Positions 24,859 to 53,290 of a DNA stretch of 64,000 nucleotides are shown here, piece after piece. The notes beneath the pieces are model-generated. The model saw only the letters and a program-made list of their open reading frames with translations, was not told the origin of the DNA and made no database searches. The stretch is taken from assembly GCA_040902745.1 (NCBI GenBank), contig JBBDWR010000012.1, positions 44,171-108,170 on the forward strand, read 5' to 3'. The stretch comes from Actinomycetota bacterium. Lineage in GTDB: Bacteria > Actinomycetota > UBA4738 > HRBIN12. The position numbers and the translations under genes are program-made. Numbering within the stretch: the first letter of the stretch is position 1; each line of letters starts with the position of its first letter.

Positions 24859-24878
24859 GGTCCGCTACCTTTCGCTGG

Positions 24879-28923: not shown

Positions 28924-28987
28924 CGATGACGCTCCGCAGGGCGGCGCCCCGAGTGCGTGGCAGCGGGCACGAGGAGGTGCACTCTCC

Positions 28988-31624: not shown

Positions 31625-31655
31625 GTTCGCTCTCCTTCCACCGTGCCGTGCGCGA

Positions 31656-33371: not shown

Positions 33372-33453
33372 CAGGCGGAGGACGAGCAGTAACCCCGGCT
33401 TGTGTCGGAGGACGAACCGTTCGACCGAACTCGGCGGCCGGGACCGGTCGACC

Positions 33454-33481
33454 CCGGAGGATCCGCGGTCGATCCCTCCGG
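33454..33481 (-). other. stem-loop in the SBP-permease intergenic spacer
   Basis: CCGGAGGAT..ATCC(C)TCCGG imperfect 9-bp inverted repeat inside the 165-nt gap. Possibly an mRNA stability or processing element. Confidence 0.3.
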
Positions 33482-33536
33482 TCTGCGTCGACCGGACCAG
33501 CGTGTCGTCCTGGCTCAGCGCCTCACCCCGTCCCGC

Positions 33537-34646: not shown

Positions 34647-35785
34647 ACCGCTGTCTCCTTCTGGGTCGTCGGTGCCGCCGCCAGGGATCCGACGTCGGCG
34701 ATCAGTGCGGAGAAGACACGAGCACATCGGACAACCTCTCGGACGTCGATGTGCTCGTCTGGGTGGTGAGCCGTCCGCAGGTGTCCAGGGCCGAAGACGA
34801 TGACCTCGGAGTGCGACCGATCGGAGAAGCTGTGTGCGTCGGTCCACGAGGGCATCCGTGTGTAACCGGGCTCACGGCCGATCGCGCTTTGGCTCGCTCG
34901 TGCCAGCGCTCGCGGGAGCGCGGCTCCGGGGGAGGTCTCCCACCATCCGCCCGAGTCCTTGAGTTGGAACGTCGCGTCGGAGGCGGCGCAGCGCTCCTCG
35001 ATCTGGCGCCGCACCTCGTCCAGGCTCGGCTCACCGAAGACTCGGGCCGACAGGTAGAAGTCCGCTCGGTCCGGGATCGCGTTCACGGGCTGCGCGGAAT
35101 GCATCCGTTGCACCGAGGTCATGTTGCGCCCGGCGATAGGATGCTCGTGCGTCGTGAACGGCAGCGTCTGCAGCTCAAGGAGCAGACGGGCGGCCTTCTC
35201 GACGGCGTTGTCCCCCTCCTCGATCAGCGAGCCGTGCACCGACCGACCGCCGACCCGCACCCAACCGTCGACGAACCCGGTCTCGGTGAGCGCGATATCG
35301 AGCTCGGTGCCCTCCGAGGCGACCACGAAGCGCGGACGCAGGTTGTCGGCCATCGACCGCGACCCCTTGCCCCCGATCTCCTCGTCGACGACGAATCCGA
35401 GCGCCACGGGCAGACGCTCGAACTCGACGCCGCTCTCGCGCGCCAACACAGCACCGAGGAGGATCGCCACGGCGCAGCCTTTGTCGTCCTGTGCGCCGAG
35501 ACCGCGCACGATCGTCCCGTCGACCCGCGCGCGGCCCGCCCAGTCCCACGTGGGGACGATCGTGTCGATGTGCGCGGTCAAGAGCAGATCCGGACGATCG
35601 TCGTGACCGACCAGCACGTTGGGCCCGGCGCCGGCGACCGACTGCACCTGGACGGGGAGATCGAGCTGGGAGCACCGTCCGGCGAGGTACTCCATCGCCT
35701 CGTGCTCCTGGTCGGAAACCGACGAGATCTCGACCAGGCGGACGAGTTCCTCGGTTGCCCAATCGATCGCGGCCGCGTCTTCCAC
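34643..35785 (-). CDS. M20-family metallohydrolase (ArgE/DapE/amidohydrolase type), paralogue A
   Basis: GTG start after AGAGGGGGA. LLLTAHIDTIVP..GLGAQDDKGC..VVDEEIGGKGS..WTDAH. Confidence 0.85.
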   Translation of the reverse strand: MEDAAAIDWATEELVRLVEISSVSDQEHEAMEYLAGRCSQLDLPVQVQSVAGAGPNVLVGHDDRPDLLLTAHIDTIVPTWDWAGRARVDGTIVRGLGAQDDKGCAVAILLGAVLARESGVEFERLPVALGFVVDEEIGGKGSRSMADNLRPRFVVASEGTELDIALTETGFVDGWVRVGGRSVHGSLIEEGDNAVEKAARLLLELQTLPFTTHEHPIAGRNMTSVQRMHSAQPVNAIPDRADFYLSARVFGEPSLDEVRRQIEERCAASDATFQLKDSGGWWETSPGAALPRALARASQSAIGREPGYTRMPSWTDAHSFSDRSHSEVIVFGPGHLRTAHHPDEHIDVREVVRCARVFSALIADVGSLAAAPTTQKETAV

Positions 35786-35868
35786 GCCTGTCCCCCTCTG
35801 GAGGGGTGCCCGGCGCCGGTGTGAGCCGCTGCGGGTGCGCCCCTCTTCGCCCTGAAGGCGAGCCTAGG

Positions 35869-35888
35869 CCCGATTGTCGACAGTCAGC
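35869..35888. promoter_or_regulatory. palindromic operator site (14/20)
   Basis: CCCGATTGTCGACAGTCAGC, about 85 nt upstream of the M20 start at 35785. Confidence 0.5.
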
Positions 35889-35987
35889 AAGATAGGTGGG
35901 TGCCGGATCACGGTGGTTTCGGGGGCGAATAGTGCCGGATATCGCAGGTGGTCACGCGCAGCCCCTAGCGGGACTCGGCAGATATGA

Positions 35988-36479
35988 CTACTCCTGAACG
36001 AGCAGACGTGTCCAGCGGTAGCTGTGCTTGGCCACGTTGAGGATCGTGAACGTCTCGATCCCATCCACTCCGGGAGCCGTCCGAACACCCTCCTCGAGGA
36101 CGCGGAACATGTGATCGTTGTCGCGGCAGACGACCTCGATCAGCAGGTCGAACGAGCCGGTACACACGGCGATGTAGTCGACCTCGGGGATGTCCTGCAG
36201 CGCCTCGACCGCACCCGCCACCGATCCGCCACGCACCCGGATGCCGATCTCTGCGAAGACGAGCCCCAGTGCCAGCGCGTCCGACACGGCGACGACCTGG
36301 ACGACGCCACGACGCACCATCCGCGCATACCGGTTTCGCACCGTCGCCTCGGACAGCTCGAGGTTGCGGGCGATCTCGGTGAACGGCCAGCGGCCGTCCT
36401 GGTTCAGCTCCTCGATGATCTGGACGTCGGTCTCGTCCAGCGCCCCCCGCAGCACGGGCGTCACCTCCATAGTCGTCAA
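35988..36479 (-). CDS. Lrp/AsnC-family transcriptional regulator
   Basis: LDETDVQIIEELNQDGRWPFTEIARNLELSEATVRNRYARMV HTH plus a C-terminal RAM-like domain. Start is TTG 36479 or ATG 36470. Confidence 0.85.
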   Translation of the reverse strand: MTTMEVTPVLRGALDETDVQIIEELNQDGRWPFTEIARNLELSEATVRNRYARMVRRGVVQVVAVSDALALGLVFAEIGIRVRGGSVAGAVEALQDIPEVDYIAVCTGSFDLLIEVVCRDNDHMFRVLEEGVRTAPGVDGIETFTILNVAKHSYRWTRLLVQE

Positions 36480-36491
36480 CCGCCTCGAAGG

Positions 36492-37598
36492 TCAGGCGGC
36501 CTTGAAGGTACGCCACACCTCGAGCCACCGATCGTAGTTCTCGGGGATCTGCAGCGCGATCGCGGCATCCAGTTGTTCCGGCTGGTCCAGTCGGAGCTGC
36601 TTCACAAGTTCGGGATCGAGCTGGTCGAGCGTCTCCTGGTTGGAAACGACGTAGTTGTAGGTCTCCGCGTAGAACGCCTGCGCCTCGGGACTGGCGTAGT
36701 AGTTCAGCGCGGCGTAGGCAGCGTTCAGACTCTCCTCGGACACGTCGGCCCCCAAGGACATGCCGCACACCCACGCCATCGAACCCTCGGCGGACGACAT
36801 CGCCACGGGGATGTCCTCGCGCTGCATCGCGGCGACGTAGTCGTGGTAGCCGAAGCCCGCGACGATCTCGCCGGTGCGGTAGAGGTTCAAGAAGTCCGCG
36901 TCGCCCTTGAACAGCGTGCGCACCTGATCCTTGTGATCGAGCAGGTACTGCTGGATCTCGTCGAGGTCGGCGTCGTCCAGGTCGTAGGGGTCGGTGTGGC
37001 CCAGAGCCAGCGCGACCAGCGGGATCGTCTCCTGCGGACTGTCGCCCAGGGTGATCTTGCCCGTGAGGGCGGGATCTTCCATCAGCTGGCGGTAGGAAGT
37101 GACCTCGCCCGCCTCTTCGGGGTTGTAGATGATGCCGCTCGTGCCGCCGACGTTGGGGATCATGTAGACCTCACCGTCGTAGGTGATCCCCGACAGTTCG
37201 CGGATCTGTGGGAACAGCGAGTTCCACGCCTCGATCCGGCTCGTGTCGATCGGCTGGATCAGTCCGGCCTGCACCATGCGGGCGGTCTCCTCGGTGCAGG
37301 AGTTGATCACGTCGGCGTGGAACCCTCCCTGCAGCTTCGCCACCGCCTCGTCGTTGTCGGAGAAGTTCGCGGCACGGACCGTGACCTCGGGGTTGGCCTC
37401 CTCGAACGGCCCCAGCACCTCGGGAAGGATCACGTCCTCGTAGCCGTAGATGGTGATCTCGCCGCTGGGCTGACCCGCGGTCGTTCCGCCCTCGCCGCTC
37501 GCGTCCTCCGCGCCGTCGCCGTCGCCGGAACAAGCGGTCGCCACCAAAGCGAGGGCGAACATCACCACAGCGAGCCGTCCGAGTCTGAGTCCAAGCAT
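36492..37598 (-). CDS. PotD-like substrate-binding lipoprotein (paralogue 3 of 3, orphan: no adjacent permease/ATPase)
   Basis: Start ATG 37596-37598 (MLGLRLGRLAVVMFALALVATAC lipobox). Confidence 0.85.
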   Translation of the reverse strand: MLGLRLGRLAVVMFALALVATACSGDGDGAEDASGEGGTTAGQPSGEITIYGYEDVILPEVLGPFEEANPEVTVRAANFSDNDEAVAKLQGGFHADVINSCTEETARMVQAGLIQPIDTSRIEAWNSLFPQIRELSGITYDGEVYMIPNVGGTSGIIYNPEEAGEVTSYRQLMEDPALTGKITLGDSPQETIPLVALALGHTDPYDLDDADLDEIQQYLLDHKDQVRTLFKGDADFLNLYRTGEIVAGFGYHDYVAAMQREDIPVAMSSAEGSMAWVCGMSLGADVSEESLNAAYAALNYYASPEAQAFYAETYNYVVSNQETLDQLDPELVKQLRLDQPEQLDAAIALQIPENYDRWLEVWRTFKAA

Positions 37599-37664
37599 CC
37601 CCGTCCCCCTGTTTGCGCGAGCGCGTCCGCCGCTGCCGACGAACCTTGTGCGTTTCCTACACCG

Positions 37665-37684
37665 GTCGACGGTCGACTGTCTAC
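37665..37684. promoter_or_regulatory. palindromic operator site (17/20)
   Basis: GTCGACGGTCGACTGTCTAC, between the orphan SBP (start 37598) and the divergent SDR (start 37730). Confidence 0.6.
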
Positions 37685-37729
37685 CCACTGTGCTAGCGTC
37701 CGGCGCGCATCAGATGGGAGGCTGCAGCG

Positions 37730-38579: not shown

Positions 38580-38665
38580 TCGTCAACGTGTTGACGAACA
38601 TCTCGTCAAGACGCTGACGGTTCGTCGCCACCACCCCGCAGCAACAACTCGTCAACGTATTGACG
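38580..38665. repeat. three related inverted repeats (CGTCAA-N-TTGACG type) in a convergent intergenic region
   Basis: TCGTCAAC-GT-GTTGACGA at 38580-38597, CGTCA-AGACGC-TGACG at 38604-38619, CGTCAA-CGTA-TTGACG at 38650-38665. Confidence 0.6.
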
Positions 38666-38675
38666 GGAGCACCAC

Positions 38676-39539
38676 CTATGTGACGTCGGGACGGTGCAAG
38701 GGCTGCCCCTTCACACCCAGATCAGCGATCGCCAGGTAGTCCTCACCGACGTTCGCCGTCACCGCGCGATCGAGCGCGTCACCCACGAAGCACATGTTCG
38801 TCGGCGAGTTCAGCCGTTTCGCCTCCCAGTCGTCGACGACGACCTCGAGGGTGCCGTCCGGACGCAGCACGTCCAGGCGGTCGGGACGGTAGTAGGCGAT
38901 GTACATGTTCCCCTCGTTGTCGAACACCAAGCCGTCGGGCACCGTCCGGGCCATCTCCACGACCAACTCACCCGAACCCGCCGAACCGTCTGGCTCGATC
39001 GGGATCCGCCATAGGCGCCCACCCGTGTGCACCTCTTCGGGGTGCGATTGCGCGACCCACAGGGCCGACCCATCCGGCGCCAATGCGCACCCGTTGGGAT
39101 ACCCGCCCACGGCGTCCGACCACACGGACGTTTCGCCGCCCCCGGGCTCCACGCGGAACACCACGCCGTTCAGCGACGACGTCACGTACATGACCCCCGC
39201 CGCATCGAATACCGGCCAGTTCGGCTCGTCGATCGGCGTGCCGGGAGCTCCCGCCGTGTAGGTCTCGACCTTGCCCGTGTCGGGGTCGATCCGCGACACG
39301 TCCTGGCGCACGTAGTCGCACGCGTAGATGTGGCCCGCACCGTCGACCGCCACCCCGAGCACGACCCCGCCCGTGTTCGCCACCTCACGCGAGGACCCGT
39401 CCAGGCCAACCGAGTAGATCTGTCCTCCCTCGCCGCCACAGTAGATGCGGCCGGCGAGCGGATCCCAACACAGCCCTTCCGGGTGCTGCAGGTCCCCCGC
39501 CAACGGCGAGAAGACCTCCGGTGCGAACAGCGCGTCCAT
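38676..39539 (-). CDS. SMP-30/gluconolactonase/LRE-like beta-propeller hydrolase
   Basis: 287 aa. PEGLCWDP..GRIY..G.IY.., YPNGCALAPDGSALWVA, VPDGLVFDNEGNMYIA. Confidence 0.8.
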   Translation of the reverse strand: MDALFAPEVFSPLAGDLQHPEGLCWDPLAGRIYCGGEGGQIYSVGLDGSSREVANTGGVVLGVAVDGAGHIYACDYVRQDVSRIDPDTGKVETYTAGAPGTPIDEPNWPVFDAAGVMYVTSSLNGVVFRVEPGGGETSVWSDAVGGYPNGCALAPDGSALWVAQSHPEEVHTGGRLWRIPIEPDGSAGSGELVVEMARTVPDGLVFDNEGNMYIAYYRPDRLDVLRPDGTLEVVVDDWEAKRLNSPTNMCFVGDALDRAVTANVGEDYLAIADLGVKGQPLHRPDVT

Positions 39540-39564
39540 CGTCCCCGTTCCTCTCTCGCGACGA

Positions 39565-40023
39565 CTACGTCTCGCCGCGTGCCTTCTTCATCGCTGCCTT
39601 GACCTCGTCGGTGTCCAACGTCATCTCGAGGAACCCGACCTGCTCTTCGTAGACCGACGCATCGGCCTGCTCTTTCACCTCGTATTCGAAGATGTGCAAC
39701 ACGGAGAGCCCCAACTGGACTCCCGCCAACGGACCCACCCAGGCCGGATCTCCGTCCCGCACGGTCTCGGCCGCGACTTCGACCGCTTCCGCGTCGGCCG
39801 CGCCGAGCATCACGACGAGGTTCTCGTCACCGTGCTCGTCGACGATCCGTTTGATCAACGCCTGGTTCTCCGGGTCCATGGCGCCGGACGCCGTTCAGAC
39901 GAAGCACTCCGTGCGGACCTCGATCACCTCGGCGCCGGCGCTCTTCGCCACCTCGGCGATCGCCTCGCCGGGTACGGAGTCGCGCTCGCCGAGGGCGATC
40001 ACCTTCTTGCCTTTCAGCTCCAT
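39565..40023 (-). CDS. grdA: glycine/sarcosine/betaine reductase complex selenoprotein A (GrdA) with in-frame UGA = Sec43
   Basis: Reading through TGA 39895-39897 gives [83 protein letters not shown]. This matches the GrdA CFVUTAAGAMD core as I remember it. The ORF track shows only the post-UGA part, 39565..39879. Confidence 0.85.
39856..39886 (-). promoter_or_regulatory. candidate SECIS stem-loop downstream of the grdA UGA
   Basis: mRNA +9..+39 after UGA folds to a 10-bp stem (2 G-U pairs, one bulged A) with a 10-nt loop ACCCGGAGAA. An alternative is the 5-bp UCCGG/CCGGA hairpin. The exact fold is uncertain. Confidence 0.4.
39895..39897 (-). other. in-frame UGA selenocysteine codon of grdA
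   Basis: TGA sits in the conserved C-F-V-U-T context. The frame is continuous from ATG 40021-40023 to TAG 39565-39567. Confidence 0.8.
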
Positions 40024-40066
40024 GTCGGTTGCTTCACCTCCCCTCGTGTGCGTCTCACGCGCCACC

Positions 40067-40447
40067 TCAGGCGCCTTGGTCGCGAAGATGTTCGGGGACC
40101 GGCAGTCCCACGGCCGGTGCGCCGTCCAACAGTCGGCGGATCGCCGCTTCGATGTCGTCGGGCGTCGCGGCGTTGCTCGTGATGCGCTCCACCTCGACGC
40201 CGTCGCGCATCGTGATGTAGGCAGGCAGTCCCGCCACGCGAAGGTCCCGGCAGATCTTCCGGTTGTCCGGTGCGTTCACCTTCACGAGCGTCACCTCGTG
40301 CGCGTACTTTTCGCCGAGCGCCTCCACCGCGGGCATCAGCGCCAGACACGGCTGACACTCCGGTCCCCAGATGTCGACGAGGACGTGGCCCTCGTTGACG
40401 AGGTCGTCGAACTCCTCGACGGTCGCTTCGATCGCCATCGTGTGCAT
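40067..40447 (-). CDS. thioredoxin with atypical WGPECQPC active site
   Basis: ATG 40445-40447 after AGGAGGGGAGGGA. 126 aa. [28 protein letters not shown]. The long 5' ORF extension (to 41599) overlaps grdC and was rejected. Confidence 0.85.
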
Positions 40448-40473
40448 TCCCTCCCCTCCTCTTGGCCTTTCCT

Positions 40474-41793
40474 CTAGGCCTCGAGCGTTACGGACGCGCC
40501 GTCCCACAGCCGGGTGAGTCGGCCGAGGAACAGCGATCCCTTCGCGATCAACATCGTCGTATCGAGCTTGCCGGCCTGCATCCGCGCCAGCGCGTGCGGC
40601 AACCACGGCACCGCCGACGCGATGTGTCCCTGCGTCGGCGAGAACCCGGGCAACCCGTGCGCTCTCGCGAACCCGGCGATCTCGCTCTTGTCCATCTCGC
40701 CACGGACAACCCCGAGTCCCGCGAGCATCTTGTAGTTGCGGTCGGGAACGTCCCCGCCGCCCTGAGGCTCGGTGATCTCGGGGTTGTGGATCTCCACCGC
40801 GTACGTACCGATGTCGGAAACCCGCAGCCCCATCGCGTCCAGCGGCGCACCGACGAGCGACTCGAGCTGGCCCTGCTGCGCGTTGCCCACGCGCACCGGC
40901 ATGCGGCCGATCGCATCTGTGCGCAGCACGGGTCCGTTCGACCCGTCGGCCGGACCCAGCAGCACCGCCATCCCGGCGAGGACGTCCTCGATCACCGGGA
41001 ACCCCTTGTCGAGGGCGCCCTCGAACTTCATCCCGAGCTTGCCAAGCGACCCGCCCGCGACGAGCAGCACGCGCTCCTCGACCCCCGCCTCGATCAGGGC
41101 CGCGGCCACGGCCATCGCGTGCACGGGCGCGGCGCAGAACGACTTCACGTCGATCCCGCTGGCGTTCACGACCCCGCAGTGTTCGGCGACGGCCTTCGCG
41201 AGGTTGCCGCCTCCGCGCTGATAGCGATCGCCGATCGCCTCCTCTCCGCAGCCGATCGCGTGCGTGATCGACCCCGGATCCACGTCGCTGGTCTCGAGCA
41301 AGTGCCGCAGCGCATGCACGGCGCTCGCCTTGATCGTGTAGTTCTCCAGCAGCACGTGCGCCTGCAGCGATTCGTCGAGAGCGTGGGCGGGGGCGAACGC
41401 TCCCACGACCTCGCCGCCGGCGAACAGTCCGAGTTCGCCTTTGCCGGGATCGGGCTCGTCTTTGAGGCGCACCAACTCGAACTGATCGATCTCGGCGAGC
41501 AGCTCGTAGAAGCGGTTCTGCTCCATCACGTCGCCGAACGGTCCGGCCGGCGACGCGCCCTCGACGGGGTGTTGCCACCAGGTTCGCGGACGCTCCCACA
41601 GGTCATCGGGCGCCAGCGCCCCGACGAACACCTGGTTCGGCGGATAGGCGACCGCGTCCTCGTACGAGCGGAGCGCACCGAACAGTTCCGGCCACCGCGC
41701 CTGTTCGCGCCACGGCTTGGACCCGTACCGGACCAGATCAGGGACGTGCTCCAGCACGAACGACGCCGCGAGCACGGCGGCCCGTCTGCTCAC
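40474..41793 (-). CDS. grdC: glycine reductase complex component C, beta subunit-like (GrdC; thiolase/KAS-III-like fold)
   Basis: SFVLEHVPDLVRYGSKP..LRSYEDAVAYPPNQVFVG..GDRYQRGGGNLAKA..DVKSFCAAPVHA..LVAGGSLGKLGMKF..KGSLFLGRLT. GTG 41791-41793 (GGGAGG 6 nt upstream) overlaps the grdB stop (GTGA). ATG 41808 is an alternative. Confidence 0.75.
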   Translation of the reverse strand: MSRRAAVLAASFVLEHVPDLVRYGSKPWREQARWPELFGALRSYEDAVAYPPNQVFVGALAPDDLWERPRTWWQHPVEGASPAGPFGDVMEQNRFYELLAEIDQFELVRLKDEPDPGKGELGLFAGGEVVGAFAPAHALDESLQAHVLLENYTIKASAVHALRHLLETSDVDPGSITHAIGCGEEAIGDRYQRGGGNLAKAVAEHCGVVNASGIDVKSFCAAPVHAMAVAAALIEAGVEERVLLVAGGSLGKLGMKFEGALDKGFPVIEDVLAGMAVLLGPADGSNGPVLRTDAIGRMPVRVGNAQQGQLESLVGAPLDAMGLRVSDIGTYAVEIHNPEITEPQGGGDVPDRNYKMLAGLGVVRGEMDKSEIAGFARAHGLPGFSPTQGHIASAVPWLPHALARMQAGKLDTTMLIAKGSLFLGRLTRLWDGASVTLEA

Positions 41794-43097
41794 GCGGACA
41801 CCTCCCACACGGTCGCCGGCTCCACGTCGGTCTCAACCATCTCGAGCGCGCGTTCCACGATCTTGGTGCGCAGTGCCACTTCTTCCTCCTCGTCCAGCGA
41901 CGGATCCCCGGTCGGGTTCGTGATCGCCGGCCCTCGCACGATCCGGCTGGCTCCCGCCATCTGTGCGATCGTCGGCAACGACGTGATCGTCGCCACCGGG
42001 ATGCCTTTCCGTTCGATCTCTTTCGCAAGCGTCGCCCCGCAACGCGTCCCTGTGCCTCAGGTGCCGGTCAACACCACCGCCTGGACTCCGGCATTGACCA
42101 GCTCGGCCGCGATCTCCTGGCCGAAGCGCGTCGCGGACGCCACGGGCGTGTCCACGCCCGTCGTCGTGTAGAAGGTCGGATGCAACCGGCCGATCCGTCC
42201 CTGGGTCTCCAGCCTTCGCACCGCGTCCAGCGGCACGAGCCGATTGGGATCGGCATTCCCAGCGGTCGTGTCGAAACCTCCGTGGACGGTTTCGTAGGCA
42301 TCGGCCGACATTGAGGCCACTCCGTCGATGGGATAGGCCAGCCAGGCGTGCGCCCGGCGAGAGACGAGGTGATCCGGGTTGCCCTGGGGAACACACCCAG
42401 CCTCCGACACGAGCGCCACCAGCGCCTCGCTCACGTCCGGCACCGGCGACGCCGGCGGCACGACTTCGAACGCAGGCGCCACTTCTGTCTCGAAGGCCTC
42501 GCCGCGGAGCTTGGCGAGCACCAGATCGAGGGCCCGGTCGGCTCCCGACCGATCGACGACCTCGTTGCGTCGGATCCCCCGGGGCAGGTAGCCCGCCTCT
42601 TCTGGCGAGCCCGGGTCGCGCCCCTCGGCGAGCGCCACACCGATGGCGGCGAGCACGGGAAGCGCGTCCTTCATCCCCGCGACGTTCGCGGTGGTCGGAA
42701 CGACGTAGGCACCCCCCTCGGCGGCGATCACCCCGGGGTTCTCGGGGAACATCGCCGTCACGACGGGGATCCCACGTCGCGAGGCCTCGCGGGCGAGCAT
42801 CCCGCAGGCGTAGCCGTAGCGGCCCGAGTTGAAGGCGGGCCCGCACACGAGTACGTCGGGCGCCTCCTCCTCCAGCCAGGCAAGCAGGGTTGCGAGCGCG
42901 GGATCCTCGTGTTCGGCGAAGTAGTCGTCTCCGCACGCCAGCGTGACGTCGACGGGCAGTCCCAGCGGCGTCAGCCCTCGGCCGGGTCCCTGCGGCCCCT
43001 CGAGGCGCACCGGCTCGTGACCTGCGGCCTCCTCGGCACCGAGACCTGCGAAGAATTGGTTCATGTAGTGGACGACGCGAACCGCGGCCGGGCTCAT
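41790..43097 (-). CDS. grdB: glycine/sarcosine/betaine reductase selenoprotein B family (GrdB/GrdF/GrdH) with in-frame UGA
   Basis: MSPAAVRVVHYMNQFFAGLGAEE.. N-terminus. Read-through of TGA 42057-42059 gives ..AVVLTGT-U-GTGTRCGATLAKEIERKGIPVATITS..NPTGDPSLDEEEE... The ORF track splits it into 42057..44066 and 41790..41996, which are in the same frame. 435 codons, typical GrdB size. Confidence 0.85.
42029..42045 (-). promoter_or_regulatory. candidate SECIS hairpin downstream of the grdB UGA
   Basis: GCGUUGC-GGG-GCGACGC (7-bp stem incl. one G-U). The stem starts 11 nt after UGA and the G-rich apical loop starts at +19, consistent with bacterial SECIS geometry. Confidence 0.55.
42057..42059 (-). 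other. in-frame UGA selenocysteine codon of grdB-family gene
   Basis: TGA sits in the conserved LT(S/G)T-U-G-T-x-T-R-C-G-A-T context. Confidence 0.8.
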
Positions 43098-44377
43098 ATC
43101 GTCACTCCCCGCAGTCTGCCGTCCCCGAGTTGCGTCGCGGCGTCGAGGTAGTGCAGCACCGGCACCTGTGCCGGTGCTTCGTGATCCGTTTCGCCGATCA
43201 CGCTCGCGGGCGTCCAGCCGTCCGCGCGCTCCAGAACGTTGCCGGTCGACACCAGTGCGTCTGCTTCTGCGACGTGGTCGGTCAGGCCCCCCTCTTCCGC
43301 GACGATGCCCACGGCGCGAACGCCGAGTTGTTCGCACGCGCGCAGGGTGAGCATCGTGTCGGTGTGGGAGTTGCCCAGCGAATACGTCGTGCAGATCGCG
43401 GCATCCGCGCCGAGTTCCTCGGCTGCGATGTGCGCCGCGCCGTCCGCCATGCGCCGTTTGTCGTCCGCGTCGTCCAGGTATCCCTGGGTCAAGACCGCGC
43501 CGGGACACACCAGCGCGGTGCCGTGCTCGTTTAACAGGCGATGCAGCAAACGCGACCGTTGGATCGTTCCCGTGCTCACGCGCGCCGCGGGTGAGTCGTA
43601 CGCGCCCGCGGTCAAGGCACCATCGAGCAGCGCTCTCGGATCGACGGCGCAGGGACTCACAAGGTCCACGGGCGCTCCGCGCAGGTAGGTCGTCAGCCCC
43701 GGTCCCTCGGCCGTGAACTGCAGGATCGGCACCACCACGGGCAGCTCCCCGGCCACTTCCCCGAGCGCGAACACGGACTCGGTATCCGCGTCGCTGTCCT
43801 CGGCCGTAGCCGAGGCCAGATCCCGGGCCGCTCGGAGCAGTGTGCGGCGGGCGGCCGCGTCGACGTCGGCGAGAGAGGCGCCCTGCGCGGCTACCAGCTC
43901 CAGGACCAGGTTGATCGTCGATCCCCACGGGGTCAGAGATGCCCCCGATCCGTCCATGTCGACGTAGCTGGCCGGGATCGGATCGTCGGGATCGATCAGC
44001 GCTCCCATGTCGAGCGTCGACAACACCGCGATGCCGTCGAGCCGATCTGTTCGTCCCGTGCCGCATAGCGCGTCGGCGGGGCCGAGCACGCCGGGGAAGG
44101 TCGCCGCAGGATCGTCCGCCTTGACCGACGGCACGACGGCGTCGAGGACGTTCGCGATACGAACGGAGTCACCGGGACGAACGACGTGCGCGCGCAACGA
44201 GCCGAGCGCGGGTTCGTCGGAGCACAGGGACTCGACGACGTCGAGGTCGATCTCGAGGAGAGGATCGCCGGGAGTGCGAGAGACGCGCCCTTCCCCATGG
44301 CGCACCTCCCGCACCGCCCGGACGTCGAAAGCCGCGACGGTGAGCGGCGACGCAGAGATGGTACCCGGTCTCGGCAT
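43094..44377 (-). CDS. glycine/sarcosine/betaine reductase component B alpha/beta-type subunit (GrdE/GrdG/GrdI family), lacking the canonical Asn-Cys autoprocessing site
   Basis: ATG 44375-44377. 427 aa. RPGDSVRIANVLDAV.P..K...FPG, LLDGALTAGAYDS.., TQGYLDDADDKRR.., NSHTDTML. ATGA overlap with grdB. The long 5' ORF extension was rejected. Confidence 0.75.
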   Translation of the reverse strand: MPRPGTISASPLTVAAFDVRAVREVRHGEGRVSRTPGDPLLEIDLDVVESLCSDEPALGSLRAHVVRPGDSVRIANVLDAVVPSVKADDPAATFPGVLGPADALCGTGRTDRLDGIAVLSTLDMGALIDPDDPIPASYVDMDGSGASLTPWGSTINLVLELVAAQGASLADVDAAARRTLLRAARDLASATAEDSDADTESVFALGEVAGELPVVVPILQFTAEGPGLTTYLRGAPVDLVSPCAVDPRALLDGALTAGAYDSPAARVSTGTIQRSRLLHRLLNEHGTALVCPGAVLTQGYLDDADDKRRMADGAAHIAAEELGADAAICTTYSLGNSHTDTMLTLRACEQLGVRAVGIVAEEGGLTDHVAEADALVSTGNVLERADGWTPASVIGETDHEAPAQVPVLHYLDAATQLGDGRLRGVTI

Positions 44378-44379
44378 CC

Positions 44380-46035
44380 TCACACCATCCCCCGCTCGGG
44401 GTCCCTCTGTGGCCTGCGTCGCGACCTGCGAGCATCTCGGAGGACCTCCCGGGCGCAATTGCTCCCGTTCGCTCCGGTCACCCCGCCTCCCGGATGTGTC
44501 CCCGCGCCGCACAGGTACAGGCCGCGAACCGGCGAGCGGTACGCGCCGTAGCCGCGGATCGGTCGCAAGAACAGCAATTGGTCCGGCGACATGTCGCCGT
44601 GCATGTGATGGCCGCCGGTGAGCGCGAGCCTTCGCTCGAGATCGAGCGGCGACAAGACCTCGCGATGCAGCACCGATCCCAAAACGTTGGGGAACGCTTC
44701 GCCCACGCGTTCGATCACGCGGTCGGCGATCGCGTCCTTGCGTTCGTCCCACGTTCCGTCGGCCAGTCGGTACGGCTGTGAACGCACGCCGACCGTGACG
44801 ACGTGCTGTCCCGGTGGCGCGAGCGAAGGATCCGACACACTCGGGATACACAGCTCGATGTGCGGCTGGTCGGCCGGTTCGCCCGCCTTCGCGTGTGCCT
44901 GGTCCATGTCGAGGTCCCGCAGGGGCTTCGTGAGCTGGATCAATGCCCGGTGGTAGGGCTGCTCACGGGCCCCGGCGGCCGATCCGGCCCCCGGGAGATC
45001 GTCGAACCCGGCCAGGCGCGGCAGCTCGGAAACGCCAAGGTTGATCTTCATGCTGGCTCCGTCGGTGCGGTAGGAGCGGATCGCCCCGACCACCTCGTGC
45101 GGGAGCTCGCGCTCCCCCACCAGGCCGAGGAATGTCCGTTTGGGATCGGCGTTGGACAACACGAGGTCGGCAAAGAGCTCCTCTCCCGAGCCGGCCAGCA
45201 CCACGCCCGTCGCCCGGCCGCCGCGGATGACGATCCGTTCCACCTCGGCGTCGGTGCGGATCAACACGCCGCGTTCGGTTGCGGCCTCCGCCATGAGCCT
45301 CGTGACCTCTCCCATGCCGCCGCGGACGAATCCCCAGTTCTGCTGGCCGACCCCGCTCGCGTGATCGTGCAACAACACGTACGCGGTGCCGAAGGCCTTC
45401 GGCCCGGCGAGTGTGTTGCTGATCGACTCCCAACCCAGTGCGGATTTCAGCTCGTCGGACTCGAACCACTCGTCGAGGTACTGCGCCATCGAGGTGGTGA
45501 ACAAGAAGCTCAGCTCGGTCAGGCGCTTGCGGTTGCGCAGGCCGAGTCGCGCGAACCACGCGAGCGCCGAAAGATCCCGCCTGCTCGGCGCGCGCGGGTC
45601 GGGCGGGGTCCGGTCGAACACCGGCAGGATCGCCTCCGCGAGGCCGGCCAACCGCTCCTCGAACCGTGGGTAGGCGCGCGCGTCCCGTTTGGAGAACCGC
45701 GCGATCTCCTCGCTCGCCGCTCCAACGTCACCGTGCAAGAATAGGTGCGCGCCGTCCGGATACAGGTTCAGCGAAGGCGTGGCCGCGTCGACGTGCAGGC
45801 CGCGTTCCCGCAGCCGGAAGTCCCGCCAGATCGCGGGCCGCAGCATCGAGAGTACGTAGGCGCCCGGAGACGCCCGGAACCCCGGCGCGAACTCCTCCGT
45901 GGTGCACGCGCCCCCGACCAGCTCGCGACGCTCGAGCACGCACACGCGAAGACCCTCGCGGGCCAACGAGAACGCGGCGACGAGTCCGTTGTGTCCGCCG
46001 CCCACGATGACGACGTCGTAGCGGTTGGTCGTCAC
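44380..46035 (-). CDS. FAD-dependent oxidoreductase, CrtI/phytoene-desaturase-like (PYROXD2-like) paralogue 1
   Basis: GTG start. YDVVIVGGGHNGLVAAFSLAREGLRVCVLERRELVGGACTTEEFAPGFRASPGAYVLSMLRP.. and C-terminal GLYLCGAGTHPGGGVTGANG. Its stop is 2 nt from the grdE-like start. Confidence 0.8.
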   Translation of the reverse strand: MTTNRYDVVIVGGGHNGLVAAFSLAREGLRVCVLERRELVGGACTTEEFAPGFRASPGAYVLSMLRPAIWRDFRLRERGLHVDAATPSLNLYPDGAHLFLHGDVGAASEEIARFSKRDARAYPRFEERLAGLAEAILPVFDRTPPDPRAPSRRDLSALAWFARLGLRNRKRLTELSFLFTTSMAQYLDEWFESDELKSALGWESISNTLAGPKAFGTAYVLLHDHASGVGQQNWGFVRGGMGEVTRLMAEAATERGVLIRTDAEVERIVIRGGRATGVVLAGSGEELFADLVLSNADPKRTFLGLVGERELPHEVVGAIRSYRTDGASMKINLGVSELPRLAGFDDLPGAGSAAGAREQPYHRALIQLTKPLRDLDMDQAHAKAGEPADQPHIELCIPSVSDPSLAPPGQHVVTVGVRSQPYRLADGTWDERKDAIADRVIERVGEAFPNVLGSVLHREVLSPLDLERRLALTGGHHMHGDMSPDQLLFLRPIRGYGAYRSPVRGLYLCGAGTHPGGGVTGANGSNCAREVLRDARRSRRRPQRDPERGMV

Positions 46036-46038
46036 GTC

Positions 46039-46848
46039 CTAGGACGCCCTCACCGCACTGCCACGGCGCGCCACGTATTCGTCGCAGCGCGCGATCAGAT
46101 GGTCGCGCCCGAAGCTCGGATCGTGTCCTCCGTGAACCATGCGCACGGAGAACTCGCGGAGGCGCCGCATCGATGCCACGAAGTCGGGGATCGAGGAGTT
46201 CGGTAGCTCGTCCAGCAGTTCGTCGTCCCGATAGACGGTGTCGCCGGAGAACAAGGTCCCCGTCGCCTCGTCGAACAGCACCATCGAGCCCTGGGTGTGG
46301 CCGGGCGTGTGGAACACGGTGAAGGAACGGTCCCCGAGGTCGACGGTGTCGCCTTCGGTGACGGTGCGGGTCGGCTCGGTGGCGATCAGCGAATATGACG
46401 ACAGTTCGTAGCCGGGCGAGGGCACCGCGTCGATGAACGAGTCCGGCAACGGTGTGCCGTCCTTGGTCAGGGCGTCCTGGAAGTCCTGCGGCATCTCCGA
46501 GGGGATCAGCGTCCCTCCGTCTCGCGCGTTGGCCACGTCCGGAGCTTCCAGCTCGTGGGCGATCCGCTCGTCGAACTCGTGCAGTCCGCCCATGTGGTCG
46601 CTGTGCGCGTGCGTCACGACGGCGATGATCGGCTTGCCCGGATCGGGGCGCAGCGCGTCGACGAACGGCTTGAGCGGAGCGACACCGTTCGCCGTGTCGA
46701 CGAGCAGATCGGCGTCCCGGCCGGGAACAAGCCACACGTTGCCGCGGATCCATGCGTACATGTGCGGCTCGTTGATGCGGAACACGCCGGGCTCGACTTC
46801 GACGGCCTCGAACCACGCCTCGTCGACCGGCAGCGATGATGCGCCCAT
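46039..46848 (-). CDS. MBL-fold metallo-hydrolase
   Basis: ATG 46846-46848 after AAGGGAGG. THAHSDHMGG (HxHxDH), HTPGHTQGS. Confidence 0.85.
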   Translation of the reverse strand: MGASSLPVDEAWFEAVEVEPGVFRINEPHMYAWIRGNVWLVPGRDADLLVDTANGVAPLKPFVDALRPDPGKPIIAVVTHAHSDHMGGLHEFDERIAHELEAPDVANARDGGTLIPSEMPQDFQDALTKDGTPLPDSFIDAVPSPGYELSSYSLIATEPTRTVTEGDTVDLGDRSFTVFHTPGHTQGSMVLFDEATGTLFSGDTVYRDDELLDELPNSSIPDFVASMRRLREFSVRMVHGGHDPSFGRDHLIARCDEYVARRGSAVRAS

Positions 46849-46859
46849 GGCGCCTCCCT

Positions 46860-48032
46860 TCAGCGCGACCGGCCCGCGGGTGACGTGTCCCGCCGGCGGG
46901 TCGCATCGGCGACCAGCTGGTCGGAATCGGACAGCAGGTTCGCGAGCACGCGCGCGCACTCCACCACGTCGTGGAGGGCCACGTGCTCGTCGGGTCGGTG
47001 CGCATTGCGCAGGTGCCCGGATCCGAACACCACGGTGTCGGATCCGGCGATGTCGACGAAGTTGTGCGCGTCGGTCCAGGCGAGCATCCCGTGCTCGCCC
47101 GGCTCGGTACCCCGCACGGACGCGATCGCGCTTCGCATCGCGCCCGCCAGGGGGGCATCGGGCGGGGTCTCGAACGGCTCGGAGATCTCCACGACGTCGA
47201 TGCGGGCATCGTAGCCCGCGGCGATCGTTCGCACTTCGGTGAGCACGTCTGCCGCCGACGGGCCGCCGGCGGTCACCCGGATATCCACGTGGAGCTCGGC
47301 ACGCTCCGGAACGACGTTGAGCCGCTGTCCGCCGTGCAGTTCCCACAACATCGGGAAGTTGCGCCCGAGCGTGCGGTGGGTGTGGGAGGTGAAGTCGGCG
47401 CGCTGCAGGTCGGTCGCGAACGCGACGGCCTTCTCGAGAGCGTTGTCACCTTCCTCGCGCAGGGCGCCGTGCACGGCTCGGCCTTCGAACCGCGCCCAGA
47501 ACTCCGTGAACCCGGCCTCGGCGAGCCCGAGATCCAGCTCAGTGCCTTCGAGCCCGACAACCATCGCCGGACGCAGGTCGTCCGCCATCCGCATCGACCC
47601 CTTGCCACCGACCTCCTCGTCGACGCACAGGCCGATCCCCACGGGCATGTGTGCGAGATCGACCCCGTCGTCGAGCGCCATCTGGAAAGCCAGCATCGCG
47701 GCGACAACGCACCCCTTGTCGTCCTGGGCGCCGAGGCCGTAGAGGAGATCCCCTTCGAGGGTCGCGACCGGCGTGTGATCCCATTCCGGCCGGATCGTGT
47801 CGACGTGTGCGGTAAGCAGCAGTCCGGGAGACCGATCCCACCCGACCAGGAGGTTGTCCGCCGAGCCCTCCACCTGCTGGCGCGTGGACGGGAATCCCAG
47901 CTCCTTGGCCCGGCTCTCCAGGTAGGACACGATCTCATGCTCCTCGTCGGAGTACGAGGTGATCTCCACCTGGCGAACGAGCTCCTCACGTGCCCAATCG
48001 AGCGCGACCGCGGTTTCCACGGCAGATAGCAT
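46860..48032 (-). CDS. M20-family metallohydrolase, paralogue B
   Basis: Aligns by eye with 34643..35785 (LDWAREELVRQVEITSYSDEEH, LLLTAHVDTIRP, GLGAQDDKGC, CVDEEVGGKGS). Start is ATG 48032 or GTG 48020. No SD before either. Confidence 0.8.
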   Translation of the reverse strand: MLSAVETAVALDWAREELVRQVEITSYSDEEHEIVSYLESRAKELGFPSTRQQVEGSADNLLVGWDRSPGLLLTAHVDTIRPEWDHTPVATLEGDLLYGLGAQDDKGCVVAAMLAFQMALDDGVDLAHMPVGIGLCVDEEVGGKGSMRMADDLRPAMVVGLEGTELDLGLAEAGFTEFWARFEGRAVHGALREEGDNALEKAVAFATDLQRADFTSHTHRTLGRNFPMLWELHGGQRLNVVPERAELHVDIRVTAGGPSAADVLTEVRTIAAGYDARIDVVEISEPFETPPDAPLAGAMRSAIASVRGTEPGEHGMLAWTDAHNFVDIAGSDTVVFGSGHLRNAHRPDEHVALHDVVECARVLANLLSDSDQLVADATRRRDTSPAGRSR

Positions 48033-48048
48033 ACTGTCGACAATCGAC
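48029..48048. promoter_or_regulatory. palindromic operator site (16/20) overlapping the M20-B ATG
   Basis: GCATACTGTCGACAATCGAC, at the head of the M20-MBL-flavoprotein-grd operon. Confidence 0.6.
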
Positions 48049-48097
48049 CGTTGTGAACCCCCCTCGTGCACTCGGATCGAACGGATGCCGAGGAGCG

Positions 48098-49054
48098 TCA
48101 GCTGGGCAGGTATCGCTTCCGCAGGGCCGTGGTCGTGCGCGCAGGGAGAGCACCGGCGACGAGAAGCTCTTCGACGGTCACGGAGCAGAAGGTCGAGCGG
48201 TCCGCGAGTAGGCCTCGGTATCGGGCGCACGCGTCTTCGTAGTCCGTATTCCCGGCGGGGTGGACGACGACATACCGACCCCAACTCCACCTGCCGCTCG
48301 GATGCTGGAGCATCGACAGGAGCAAGAGATGCTCGAGCCACATCTCGGCGAGATCGGTTCTCCCTTTGACCGGCTCGATCGCTCCCGGCTTGAAGGCGCG
48401 CGACCTCTCGGCGACCTCGACATACCGCCGGAGGTTCCGCGGCTTCGGTGTCTCCGGCTTCGCTCGGTCGTGGTACCTGATGTCGAGACCCACGATCCCC
48501 TGCGTTCCGTCGCCGAGGTCGAGCGCGAATGCCGCATCGAACGAGACGAGGCTCCCGATGTACGCACGATCGAGGCGCCCCGGGGAGTGCTCGAAGATGA
48601 CGCCGGACACCGTGCCCGGCGCGTCCGGCCACCAGGTATGGACTGCTCGATCGGCGAGGTCGAGGTCGGCGGCCAGATCGCCGAACAGGTTGAAGGCCAT
48701 CGTCGGCGACCACAGCAGATCGGCCCACAGCCGCTGCCGATCGAACGTCTGGCGAGGTTCCTTGGTCGCCGTTCGAGCCGTCGCCGCGTTCCGTGCCCGG
48801 GCGGTCAGGAAGTTCGCGCCGGTCTCTCGGGCATAGTCGAGCGGGAGGCGGCTCCCGACCGGCCGCACGGCCCCTCCCTGCTTCGGCGCGATCGGCTGCG
48901 AACCGATCGGGTGCCCTTTTGCCTCACGCCACTGCGACTGGTGGTAGCGGACGCTGCGACGAAACTCGGTCATCTGCGGTCGCCCCGGCACCCGGTCGTC
49001 GGGCTGCCAGCAGTGCGCGACCTCGAGCTCCTGCCTCGACAGCTCCTCACCCAC
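48098..49054 (-). CDS. hypothetical protein (possible PD-(D/E)xK-like nuclease fold; weak)
   Basis: 318-aa ORF with normal codon bias. GTG 49054 or ATG 48973 start. No motif I can name. FEHSP..D..FDAAF..GLDIRYH is only suggestive. Confidence 0.5.
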   Translation of the reverse strand: MGEELSRQELEVAHCWQPDDRVPGRPQMTEFRRSVRYHQSQWREAKGHPIGSQPIAPKQGGAVRPVGSRLPLDYARETGANFLTARARNAATARTATKEPRQTFDRQRLWADLLWSPTMAFNLFGDLAADLDLADRAVHTWWPDAPGTVSGVIFEHSPGRLDRAYIGSLVSFDAAFALDLGDGTQGIVGLDIRYHDRAKPETPKPRNLRRYVEVAERSRAFKPGAIEPVKGRTDLAEMWLEHLLLLSMLQHPSGRWSWGRYVVVHPAGNTDYEDACARYRGLLADRSTFCSVTVEELLVAGALPARTTTALRKRYLPS

Positions 49055-49240: not shown

Positions 49241-50716
49241 CTACAGGCCCAGCGACCCCCAAGGTCCGGTGATCGCACACGTGATGCCCGGCACCTGGAC
49301 GTTGACGAACAGCCACTTGCCGTCGGGACTGAAGCGCGGTCCCGCGAACTCCGCGTGACCGATCCCGTCGCCCGCAGACGCACCGTCATCGGGAACCGTC
49401 GGGTCGTAGATCTTGCCCGACGCCTCGATGTAGTGCAGCTGCACACCGACGAGGTTCTCCGCGACGTTGATCAACGAACCGTCGGGCATCAGCGCCCGGA
49501 CGAAGTTCGACGTCTCGTCGCCGTCCTCGGCGATCAGCACCGCACCGCTCGGGCTCGTCCCCATGTTGTCGGGGCCGTCGAGGTCGTCCTCGCTCGTCGA
49601 CTCGTACAGCAGCTTCAGGATGCCTCGCTCGTCGATCTCCCCGCGTCGGATCGTGGGCTTGTACTGCCAGACCTGCCCGAGACCCGCGTCGCCGCCGTCG
49701 GACGAACCGAAGACCACGGCGTTGTTCTGGGGCACCCACGTCGCGCCTTCACCACCGAGGAACTTCGCCGCGCCCTTGGCCCGGCCCAACTTGAAGACGG
49801 CGCTCGCGTCGTCCTCTGCGTTGGCCGGGTCGGGATCGTCGATCGGCACCCAGCGCACCGGCAGCTCCTGCCCGACGACCTGGCCGCGGATCGTGTTGTA
49901 CTTGGGCTCCCCCACGACCTTCAGCATCTGCAGGGCGCCGCCCTCCTTCAGCTTGCCGTAGGTATTCGGTACGAAGCGATAGAACCCGTCCGGGCCCTCG
50001 TCCTCGGTCATGTAGACGACACCGGTCTCGTCGTCGACCGCACCGGCCTCGTGGAGCATCCGCCCCATCGCCTTGATCGGCTGCTTGCGCACGGCCCCGT
50101 TGGCCATCGCCTTGACCTCGAACACGTAGCCGTGCGGCTTCTTGCAGCCCGCGTTCACGCCGGTGACGGTCTCTTCCATCGTGAGCCAGGTGCCCCACGG
50201 AGTCTCGGCTCCGGCGCAGTTCGTGTTCGTGCCGTTGAGCGAGATGAAGTGGTCGACGAGCTCACCGTCCGGCGTGACCTCGAGCGTCGTCGTGCCGCCC
50301 GGGGACTTGCGGTCGTAGGCCGTCGCCGGGTTCCCGATCACGCTGCCGGCGGGGATGTCGTTGCCCTCACCGAGTTCGTGGTTGCGGACGATCCGGTAGT
50401 TGCCGTTCGGTGCCGGGTACACACCCATCCCGTCGTGGATAGGCGGGGTGAGGAACCCGTCCGACATCGCCGAGCCGAACCACCCGAACGTCTTGTAGCT
50501 GAAGCCCGGCGGAAGTGCGAGCTCCGGGCCCGCCGGAACCAGTCCCGTCCCCGGCGTCGCGCCGTGGGTCCTCGCGATCGAATCGAACACCTCTGCCCCG
50601 GCGCCCTTCGACATCAGCGCGGCACCGGTCATCGCGGCGCCGATCACACCGGAGCGGATGAACGCGCGGCGGCTGACCGCCCCACGTCGTCCGGCCCCAT
50701 CCTGCTCGGCGCTCAG
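49241..50716 (-). CDS. PhoX/DUF839-family secreted phosphatase-like protein with Tat signal
   Basis: PPGFSYKTFGW..SDG..HDGMGVYP..YRIVRNHE. The twin-arginine motif SRRAFIRSG lies upstream of the only canonical start (GTG 50647). The 5' end is set provisionally at CTG 50714-50716. Confidence 0.7.
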   Translation of the reverse strand: MSAEQDGAGRRGAVSRRAFIRSGVIGAAMTGAALMSKGAGAEVFDSIARTHGATPGTGLVPAGPELALPPGFSYKTFGWFGSAMSDGFLTPPIHDGMGVYPAPNGNYRIVRNHELGEGNDIPAGSVIGNPATAYDRKSPGGTTTLEVTPDGELVDHFISLNGTNTNCAGAETPWGTWLTMEETVTGVNAGCKKPHGYVFEVKAMANGAVRKQPIKAMGRMLHEAGAVDDETGVVYMTEDEGPDGFYRFVPNTYGKLKEGGALQMLKVVGEPKYNTIRGQVVGQELPVRWVPIDDPDPANAEDDASAVFKLGRAKGAAKFLGGEGATWVPQNNAVVFGSSDGGDAGLGQVWQYKPTIRRGEIDERGILKLLYESTSEDDLDGPDNMGTSPSGAVLIAEDGDETSNFVRALMPDGSLINVAENLVGVQLHYIEASGKIYDPTVPDDGASAGDGIGHAEFAGPRFSPDGKWLFVNVQVPGITCAITGPWGSLGL

Positions 50717-50857: not shown

Positions 50858-50877
50858 GCAGACTGTCGACAATCTAC
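50858..50877. promoter_or_regulatory. palindromic operator site (18/20)
   Basis: GCAGACTGTCGACAATCTAC, between the PhoX-like gene and the divergent ORF at 51006. Confidence 0.65.
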
Positions 50878-53264: not shown

Positions 53265-53290
53265 GTGCCCTCCTCTTTTCCCCGAACGGT

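Follow-up and report, generated by a model that had tools for sequence, protein, structure and literature searches.

Described Grd systems and the make-up of the Actinomycetota locus

Textbooks treat Grd-type selenoenzymes as hallmarks of Stickland fermentation, the strictly anaerobic fermentation of amino acids by low-GC bacteria. The locus analysed here lies in a high-GC genome of an Actinomycetota bacterium (assembly GCA_040902745.1, contig JBBDWR010000012.1), on the minus strand of a 64,000-nucleotide stretch of DNA that is called the window throughout, at its full length. Nine genes run there from position 48032 down to 38676, and five of them form a core that encodes, in this order, a GrdE-like and a GrdB-like subunit of protein B (hereafter GrdE' and GrdB'), GrdC, a thioredoxin (Trx) and GrdA. 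We consider it likely that this core represents a distinct, uncharacterised clade of thioredoxin-dependent Grd-type selenoenzymes, encoded in one operon under a GntR/FCD repressor and cleaving substrates of the type X-CH2-COO-.

In the described glycine, sarcosine and betaine reductases, protein B binds the substrate and its selenocysteine (Sec) takes the carboxymethyl group, GrdA accepts this group as a Se-carboxymethyl selenoether, protein C makes an acetyl thioester and then acetyl phosphate, and thioredoxin re-reduces GrdA (reviewed in PMC13188914; PMC10838667). Two operons served as references, those of Enterococcus gilvus pCR1A (L084, trxB-trx-grdA-grdC-grdD-grdI-grdH-BCCT) and Acetoanaerobium noterae (L085, grdX-trxB-trx-grdE-grdA-grdB-grdC-grdD). 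The window locus shares with these systems the CxxU motif of GrdA, a Sec at the homologous codon of the GrdB family, the position of the selenocysteine insertion sequence (SECIS), GrdC and a CxPC thioredoxin, and differs from them in its gene order (E-B-C-Trx-A), in the lack of grdD, trxB and grdX, and in a UxxGxxC motif in protein B. Hosts and surroundings differ as well, the described reductases belonging to Peptostreptococcales and other anaerobes, whereas the window system is found in Actinomycetota, with GntR control, PotD-like importers and amine-catabolic neighbours. Betaine reductase (GrdHI) resembles it in having a protein B subunit without the pyruvoyl-forming Cys and in using GrdA, GrdC and Trx; however, its locus in L084 includes a BCCT transporter, GrdD and TrxB, which do not accompany the window system.

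A further described relative, the fluoroacetate reductase FarEB of Synergistota, also consists of a GrdE/GrdB-like pair without pyruvoyl cysteines and with an altered CxxC beside Sec, and it illustrates that the fold can attack non-amine X-CH2-COO- substrates; the far operon encodes an MFS antiporter and a radical-SAM protein, and the intermediate is predicted to be handed to the glycine reductase proteins A and C (PMC10838667). In contrast to the far operon, that of the window carries its own GrdA, GrdC and Trx, and the FarE model reaches 69 bits on GrdE' against a cut-off of 675. D-proline reductase (PrdAB), finally, shares both superfamilies (Gly_reductase and GRDB) with these enzymes and has a Sec in its B subunit. 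It needs a pyruvoyl group and is not known to involve GrdA or GrdC.

Full-text literature searches returned no description of Grd systems in true Actinomycetota nor of Grd operons devoid of GrdD, and a survey from 2006 gave GrdA/GrdB under Actinobacteria only for Symbiobacterium. The genes as such have already been seen, given that public annotation labels relatives "glycine reductase"; the distinct make-up, regulon and distribution of the clade appear undescribed.

With a G+C content of 65-70% across the window, raw lists of open reading frames (ORFs) were useless, and genes were therefore called from third-position GC content (GC3) and frame-by-frame translation, families being assigned with Pfam and NCBIfam models and their cut-offs. 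The nine genes show a strong GC3 signal and are separated, in order, by 11, 3, 2, -4, -4, 26, 43 and 25 nt. An earlier model-made reading of the letters (the sequence-only reading) had described nine same-strand genes with gaps of -4 to +43 nt, in which hydrolases and a flavoprotein were co-oriented with the Grd genes; our recomputed gaps, family assignments and minus-strand orientations reproduce this, with a correction at the 5' end, where the first gene starts at ATG 48032 or GTG 48020 and not at 48052.

Two proteins of the core are clear-cut by the family models. GrdA (39565-40023, minus strand) scores 207 bits with NF040748 (cut-off 130) and 204 bits with Pfam GRDA, is 58% identical to the GrdA of Enterococcus and has its redox motif CxxU as CFVU. 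GrdC (40474-41793, minus strand; 439 aa, protein C beta subunit of KAS-III-like plus DUF5940 architecture) passes NF040746 with 509 bits (cut-off 450) and is a full-length orthologue, 41% identical to that of Acetoanaerobium, about 70 aa shorter than the reference; a stretch of about 35 aa and the C-terminal tail are missing. It keeps the KAS-III-type Cys in FCAAP, and in the PDB it matches only KAS III and thiolases. The thioredoxin between them (40067-40447, minus strand; Pfam Thioredoxin 59 bits) contains WGPECQPC, with CQPC as the active site, and has clostridial TrxA as its top NCBIfam match (86.8 bits).

The lack of grdD, trxB and grdX in the window, which had been noted before, was borne out by tblastn with the proteins of the two Firmicutes operons (GrdD scored at E ≤ 1e-3), since none of the three was detected in these 64 kb, nor in the 83 related loci described below. 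The reference GrdD, TrxB and GrdX detected each other in the Firmicutes operons. The CxPC thioredoxin is located inside the operon, and a housekeeping TrxB may exist elsewhere in the genome.

The protein B pair is where the locus departs most from the references. GrdE' (43094-44377, minus strand; Pfam Gly_reductase 191 bits) carries Ala-Tyr (AGAYDSP) where GrdE of glycine reductase has the Asn-Cys self-cleavage site (SGN-CVSAC) and betaine GrdI has Ser-Phe (SGSFMPC), so that it is predicted to be uncleavable; Gly258 and Tyr260 were invariant in a sample of 30 sequences of the GrdE' clade. GrdI and FarE also lack the pyruvoyl-site cysteines and are not proproteins (PMC10838667). Identity with GrdE' amounts to 30% for GrdE and 29% for GrdI, against 39% between those two, so that GrdE' is farther from both than they are from each other; with the GrdG model it scored 118 bits, below the cut-off of 780. 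GrdB' (41790-43097, minus strand; GRDB 387 bits), with the motif GTUGTGTRCG, passes only the broad subfamily model TIGR01918 (432 bits versus 65) and stays under the equivalog cut-offs of GrdB (407 versus 602), GrdF (432 versus 800) and GrdH (370 versus 775). The D-proline reductase models gave 18.8 bits for PrdA (cut-off 700) and 82 for PrdB (cut-off 300). All 75 unique sequences of the GrdB' family have UxxGxxC, whereas the references have UxxCxxC, and no sequence relatives of GrdE' or GrdB' were found in the PDB.

An exhaustive HMMER search of the Gly_reductase family, clustered at 50% identity, yielded 602 representatives for the whole GrdE-like family. Asn-Cys is kept in 3 of the 128 representatives nearest to GrdE', most of which have Asn, Asp or Ala followed by Tyr or Phe (x-Tyr/x-Phe). 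The nearest family members (P0121-P0269) are thus dominated by non-pyruvoyl variants of protein B, and GrdE' is part of a large and uncharacterised radiation of such proteins.

Selenocysteine codons of grdA and grdB'

The frames of both selenoprotein genes run through an in-frame TGA, at 39895-39897 in grdA (in CFVU) and at 42057-42059 in grdB'. TGA occupies this codon of grdA in all 69 sequences that contain the gene, counting the window, the related loci and the two Firmicutes references, and that of grdB in 79 of 83, where two others have TGC for Cys (L001 and L009) and two are misaligned at frameshifts. Coding-type GC3 (0.82-0.87) persists past both TGAs, and the frames 3' of them are intact in the related loci.

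In addition, a SECIS hairpin is present in grdB' (42029-42045, minus strand; GCGUUG-CGGGG with CGACGC or CAACGC as its 3' arm), with a 6-bp stem beginning 11 nt past the UGA, and it is also found at the same position in the Firmicutes references. Among 63 distinct sequences 99.5% of the cells are paired, with compensatory changes in two of the pairs (UA to CG in 15 sequences and UA to AU in 2), and the score of the hairpin was reached by none of 500 shuffles and by no slid register. In the Cys variant L001 the hairpin has decayed, and the downstream Cys has gone too (GTCGTGSRSG). These natural Cys (TGC) variants of GrdB', at L001:12277 and L009:12169, offer an easy route to heterologous expression.

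One relative, L018, has tRNA-Sec, SelB (TIGR00475, 292 bits versus 242) and SelD (TIGR00476, 334 versus 125) within 10 kb of the core. Because the TGAs are conserved, the grdB' hairpin covaries and the core of L018 adjoins tRNA-Sec, selB and selD, we read both TGAs as selenocysteine codons and not as true gene ends. The Grd-type module with two Sec codons of the sequence-only reading is thus retained, with the Cys interchange as additional evidence, and the opposite outcome that it had allowed for, namely TGAs that prove to be genuine gene ends in relatives, is excluded by their conservation across the related loci. In L018 the tRNA-Sec and sel features map to 6519-6615 and 17982-20829, and genes for a Rv1679-type acyl-CoA dehydrogenase and a Rv1680-type binding protein lie between the Grd core and the sel genes.

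Distribution, neighbouring genes and predicted regulon

A scan of GTDB genomes with the single GrdE' protein found nothing, and a profile scan was needed. Applied to one genome per GTDB species, it provided 80 loci, to which three were added from assembly look-ups to give the 83 related loci; GrdE' relatives are also numerous in metagenomes. By tblastn mapping, GrdE'-GrdB'-GrdC-Trx-GrdA are colinear in 66 of the 83, in different species-level metagenome-assembled genomes (MAGs), and most loci without the full colinear core are short or truncated contigs. All hosts are MAGs, largely from soil long-read assemblies, classified as "Actinomycetota", "Actinomycetes", Thermoleophilia, Gaiellales and one Streptosporangiaceae, plus four Entotheonella/Tectimicrobiota; the proposal of a high-GC Actinomycetota host fits, as all close relatives are Actinomycetota MAGs. 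Judged by this distribution, the arrangement is that of a widespread clade and no one-off recruitment.

Two groups of loci showed peculiarities of their own. In those from Entotheonella/Tectimicrobiota (L080-L083) only GrdE'-GrdB' were found, none of GrdC, Trx and GrdA turned up within 10 kb, and the Sec motif is ATUGTGTRSG, in which both flanking Cys are missing. In L016, L019, L050, L075 and L079 the core genes were split into several tblastn fragments, most likely by assembly frameshift errors.

The remaining four genes of the window operon flank the core. Ahead of it are an M20 (ArgE/DapE-type) metallohydrolase (46860-48032; Peptidase_M20 88.9 bits, under all NCBIfam equivalog cut-offs), a metallo-beta-lactamase-fold (MBL) hydrolase (46039-46848; Lactamase_B 78.9 bits) and a FAD oxidoreductase of the CrtI/phytoene-desaturase family (44380-46035; Amino_oxidase 75.5 bits), with a paralogue of the latter at 51642-53723; a literature search on the function of PYROXD2, to which the flavoprotein had been likened, gave no usable result. 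Behind the core is an SGL (SMP-30/gluconolactonase)/NHL-type beta-propeller (38676-39539; SGL 70 bits), resembling NHL/lactonase-like propellers in PDB and NCBIfam searches, a generic match. All four genes are on the minus strand. The trio of M20, MBL and FAD genes precedes the core only in the window genome and in its nearest relative, L001 (GCA_040877085.1), and these genes are placed differently elsewhere. L001, whose GrdE' is 70% identical, has the identical nine-gene order and the same flanks, comprising an ornithine/diaminopimelate (Orn/DAP) decarboxylase, a second CrtI-like flavoprotein, a PhoX-like protein, an SDR protein, a PotD-like binding protein, an AsnC regulator and a second M20.

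When the ORFs of the 80 loci were all clustered de novo, the recurring neighbours became apparent. The most frequent families were class-III aminotransferases (43 loci), CrtI-like flavoproteins (42), SGL proteins (42), PotD-like binding proteins (39), SDR (36) and GntR/FCD regulators (33), followed by PhoX-like (18) and MBL (17) proteins, IclR regulators (15, in Gaiellales-type loci), enolase-superfamily proteins (14), Orn/DAP decarboxylases (13), amidohydrolases close to Xaa-Pro dipeptidase (12) and M20 (11). The SGL gene adjoins the core in 45 of the 66 colinear loci, and about 45 species show the same accessory families in the surroundings of the core. Since these families return as a set but in no fixed order, it is the five-gene core that forms the conserved unit, with the hydrolase and flavoprotein genes as its recurrent companions.

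The putative control site of the operon is a 12-bp palindromic operator, ATTGTCGACAGT, at 48033-48044 (consensus AYTGTCGACART; a putative GntR/FCD site, to which, like its other copies, no strand was assigned). In the window, four sites match the strict pattern A[CT]TGTCGACA[GA]T, all of them in upstream regions, and the start of the operon at a recurrent palindrome, proposed earlier, agrees with the copy at 48033. The other copies are found at 28908-28919, between the divergent GntR/FCD and aminotransferase genes, at 35873-35884, ahead of the genes for the second M20 and for ABC importers, and at 50862-50873, upstream of the PhoX-like gene (49241-50647). Overall, 39 matches were counted, spread over 29 of the 86 sequences, where an estimate from base composition gives about 0.1 by chance. 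The operator is conserved in 28 other loci, upstream of grdE, of the PhoX-like gene, of a binding-protein gene and at the divergent GntR/aminotransferase pair, and at least 15 other species have it 5-35 nt upstream of grdE. The GntR/FCD regulator of the window (28111-28824, minus strand) is 65% identical to the regulator beside the core in 33 other loci; it is PhnR-like, though under the NCBIfam cut-off. This distribution of sites supports a predicted GntR/FCD regulon that would include the grd operon, the importers, the aminotransferase, the second M20 and the PhoX-like gene.

A promoter-like site (TTCACA-18 nt-TATGCT, 48028-48057, minus strand) overlaps the operator and is the sole sigma-70-like match on the minus strand in 38.4-48.4 kb, whereas a terminator-like hairpin with a T-rich tail is located 3' of the last gene (38650-38665, minus strand). 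With one promoter-like site before the nine genes and one terminator-like site after them, and the former overlapping the operator, the layout supports a single, repressor-controlled transcription unit as a prediction. If the promoter is real, translation may start leaderless at GTG 48020.

Around the operon, an inverted repeat (CGTCAACGTGTTGACGA / TCGTCAAGACGCTGACG, 38581-38619) is present between the convergent SDR and SGL genes, distinct from the terminator-like hairpin. A PD-(D/E)XK nuclease gene (PDDEXK_13, 218 bits; 48098-49054, minus strand) lies between the PhoX-like and M20 genes; it is missing from the otherwise syntenic L001 and may be an insertion. Downstream of the operon, 19775-37688 is occupied by a catabolic block with two PotABCD-like ABC importers, four paralogous binding proteins, two class-III aminotransferases, an aldehyde dehydrogenase, a 3-hydroxyisobutyrate-dehydrogenase-like protein, an AsnC regulator and the second M20, and by its gene content this block looks like an island for the catabolism of amines or omega-amino acids.

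Proposed reaction and competing explanations

For a thioredoxin-dependent selenoenzyme that cleaves X-CH2-COO-, the steps would be the following. Since the self-cleavage site is missing from GrdE', the GrdE'/GrdB' pair would bind the substrate or a close analogue with no pyruvoyl Schiff base, and the selenolate of GrdB' would displace X. The carboxymethyl group would then move to the Sec of GrdA, whose Cys would resolve the selenoether while GrdC would capture the two-carbon unit as an acetyl thioester, and the CQPC thioredoxin would re-reduce GrdA. This carboxymethyl and acetyl chemistry is inferred by analogy with the described reductases, because GrdA and GrdC are canonical and always present. 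Classically, it is GrdD that carries the acetyl thioester. Since no member of the clade has GrdD beside GrdC, acetyl phosphate is probably not released by the classical route, and the acetyl group may instead go from GrdC to CoA or water, unless GrdD is supplied in trans. The importers, the aminotransferase, the CrtI-like flavoproteins, the M20, MBL and SGL hydrolases, the SDR protein and the decarboxylase would supply or trim the substrate, or use up the X-H that is set free.

As regards the bond that is cleaved, the lack of a pyruvoyl site implies that it need not be a Schiff-base-activated C-N bond, and a leaving group with a quaternary or tertiary N, or one without N, would be as likely. 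The same lack points to a substrate that would require no Schiff base, such as a quaternary or tertiary ammonium compound (as betaine) or one with another good leaving group (as fluoroacetate). The sequence-only reading had seen a reductive C-N cleavage module inside a wider catabolic route; the wider route is supported by the accessory families that recur in about 45 species and by the shared operator, its function being predicted from these companions, whereas the restriction to a C-N bond is not required. The PotD/PotF-like importers, the aminotransferase, enzymes of the flavin amine-oxidase fold, the decarboxylase and the deacylases point to a precursor rich in amines or derived from peptides, or to further breakdown of the released amine; the importer substrate-binding protein is PotD/PotF-like and the aminotransferase of acetylornithine/GABA type by generic matches in PDB and NCBIfam searches. 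The operon probably marks a yet unnamed breakdown route for a small nitrogen-containing (or similar) acid. More tentatively, and at somewhat less than even chances, the clade could represent a new selenium-dependent pathway of reductive cleavage in soil Actinomycetota and Thermoleophilia/Gaiellales, in which a non-pyruvoyl protein B would act on a substrate other than glycine, sarcosine or glycine betaine, and GrdC, on its own and without GrdD, would pass the acyl unit to CoA or water instead of forming acetyl phosphate. The candidates would then be tertiary or quaternary N-carboxymethyl compounds, alpha-betaines or non-nitrogen X-CH2-COO- compounds, arising from polyamine-like or peptide-derived material. 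More speculative candidates would be N-carboxymethyl-lysine or -cadaverine, N-terminal trimethyl-alanine, glyphosate and haloacetates. A phosphonate link, to which the PhnR-like regulator, the PhoX-like protein and the PotD-like importer could have pointed, was considered and demoted to a mere idea, with no match at the level of PhnW, PhnX, PhnA or PbfA.

Several observations weigh against the proposed selenoenzyme and its reaction. We know of no precedent for a Grd system without GrdD, and grdD could sit elsewhere in these genomes. Nothing but the lack of the pyruvoyl site and the occurrence of GrdA and GrdC argues for the predicted substrate class. Gaiellales-type loci have no accessory genes about their core, so that such genes, where present, may belong to a feeder pathway of particular lineages and not to the reductase itself. 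At the level of recoding, the two candidate SECIS hairpins of grdA are weak and show no covariation, single-sequence folding energies of both SECIS regions were no better than those of shuffles, being uninformative because of the high GC content, and neither a tRNA, nor any Rfam family, nor any of selA, selB, selC and selD was detected in the 64-kb window.

That absence of Sec machinery from the window, together with frameshifts in some of the related long-read MAG loci, would also suit a view of the TGA-interrupted genes as decaying remnants or assembly artefacts without reductase function. This view is hardly credible, given that both TGAs are kept at the same codons over intact downstream frames, that Cys replaces Sec exactly at its codon in two species, that the hairpin covaries and coding GC3 continues beyond the TGAs, and that selC, selB and selD are found beside the core in L018. 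Among the functional alternatives, a glycine-betaine reductase orthologous to GrdHI, converting betaine to trimethylamine and an acetyl unit, with accessory genes that make betaine or are unrelated, is the strongest, and we still regard it as unlikely. GrdE' resembles GrdI in having no pyruvoyl site, the GrdH model does reach 370 bits, and the betaine operon of Enterococcus holds the same Trx, GrdA and GrdC parts. On the other hand, this GrdH score is less than half of the 775-bit cut-off and lower than those of the GrdF and GrdB models, GrdE' is as distant from GrdI as from GrdE, the importers are PotD/PotF-like with no BCCT or OpuA-type betaine transporter, and UxxGxxC in place of UxxCxxC and the lack of GrdD do not correspond to that system either.

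An ordinary glycine or sarcosine reductase, fed with glycine that M20, MBL and other hydrolases would free from N-acyl-glycines or peptides, would agree with the annotation of relatives as glycine reductase by JGI and NCBI and with the top NCBIfam scores, which belong to the sarcosine-type GrdF and GrdG models and to the glycine GrdB; M20 enzymes, moreover, include aminoacylases. We hold this to be improbable, as the Asn-Cys processing site is replaced by Ala-Tyr throughout the sampled clade, the equivalog cut-offs are missed widely (those of GrdG and GrdB among them) and there is no GrdD to form acetyl phosphate. We judge it just as improbable that protein B, in the manner of D-proline reductase, opens or cleaves an amino acid that is alpha-substituted or resembles a cyclic betaine, with GrdA and GrdC handling a non-acetate acyl product. 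In favour of this are enolase-superfamily genes (racemase/epimerase-like) in the neighbourhood of the core at 14 loci and Xaa-Pro-dipeptidase-like genes at 12, the lack of a pyruvoyl site and the large radiation of x-Tyr/Phe GrdE-like proteins, but GrdA and GrdC are invariably present, although PrdAB, as far as we know, works without them, the PrdA and PrdB scores are far under their cut-offs, and GrdA is 58% identical to the canonical protein, which carries a carboxymethyl group.

As a whole, the locus is robust, widespread and mechanistically puzzling, yet it stays within a known enzyme superfamily. It amounts to a complete, differently built version of Grd that purifying selection maintains in uncultured Actinomycetota of soil, in at least about 65 lineages at the species level, with its own regulator, importers and feeder enzymes. 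If true, selenium dependence would be extended to a dominant soil phylum, and identification of the substrate would add a new reaction to the turnover of nitrogen and carbon in soil; the clade would also test whether GrdC works without GrdD in the Grd mechanism.

Finally, away from the operon, two adjacent paralogous genes on the minus strand of the window (13409-15970 and 15879-18266) encode secreted proteins of about 800 aa with a near-identical architecture, as judged by eye from their translations.

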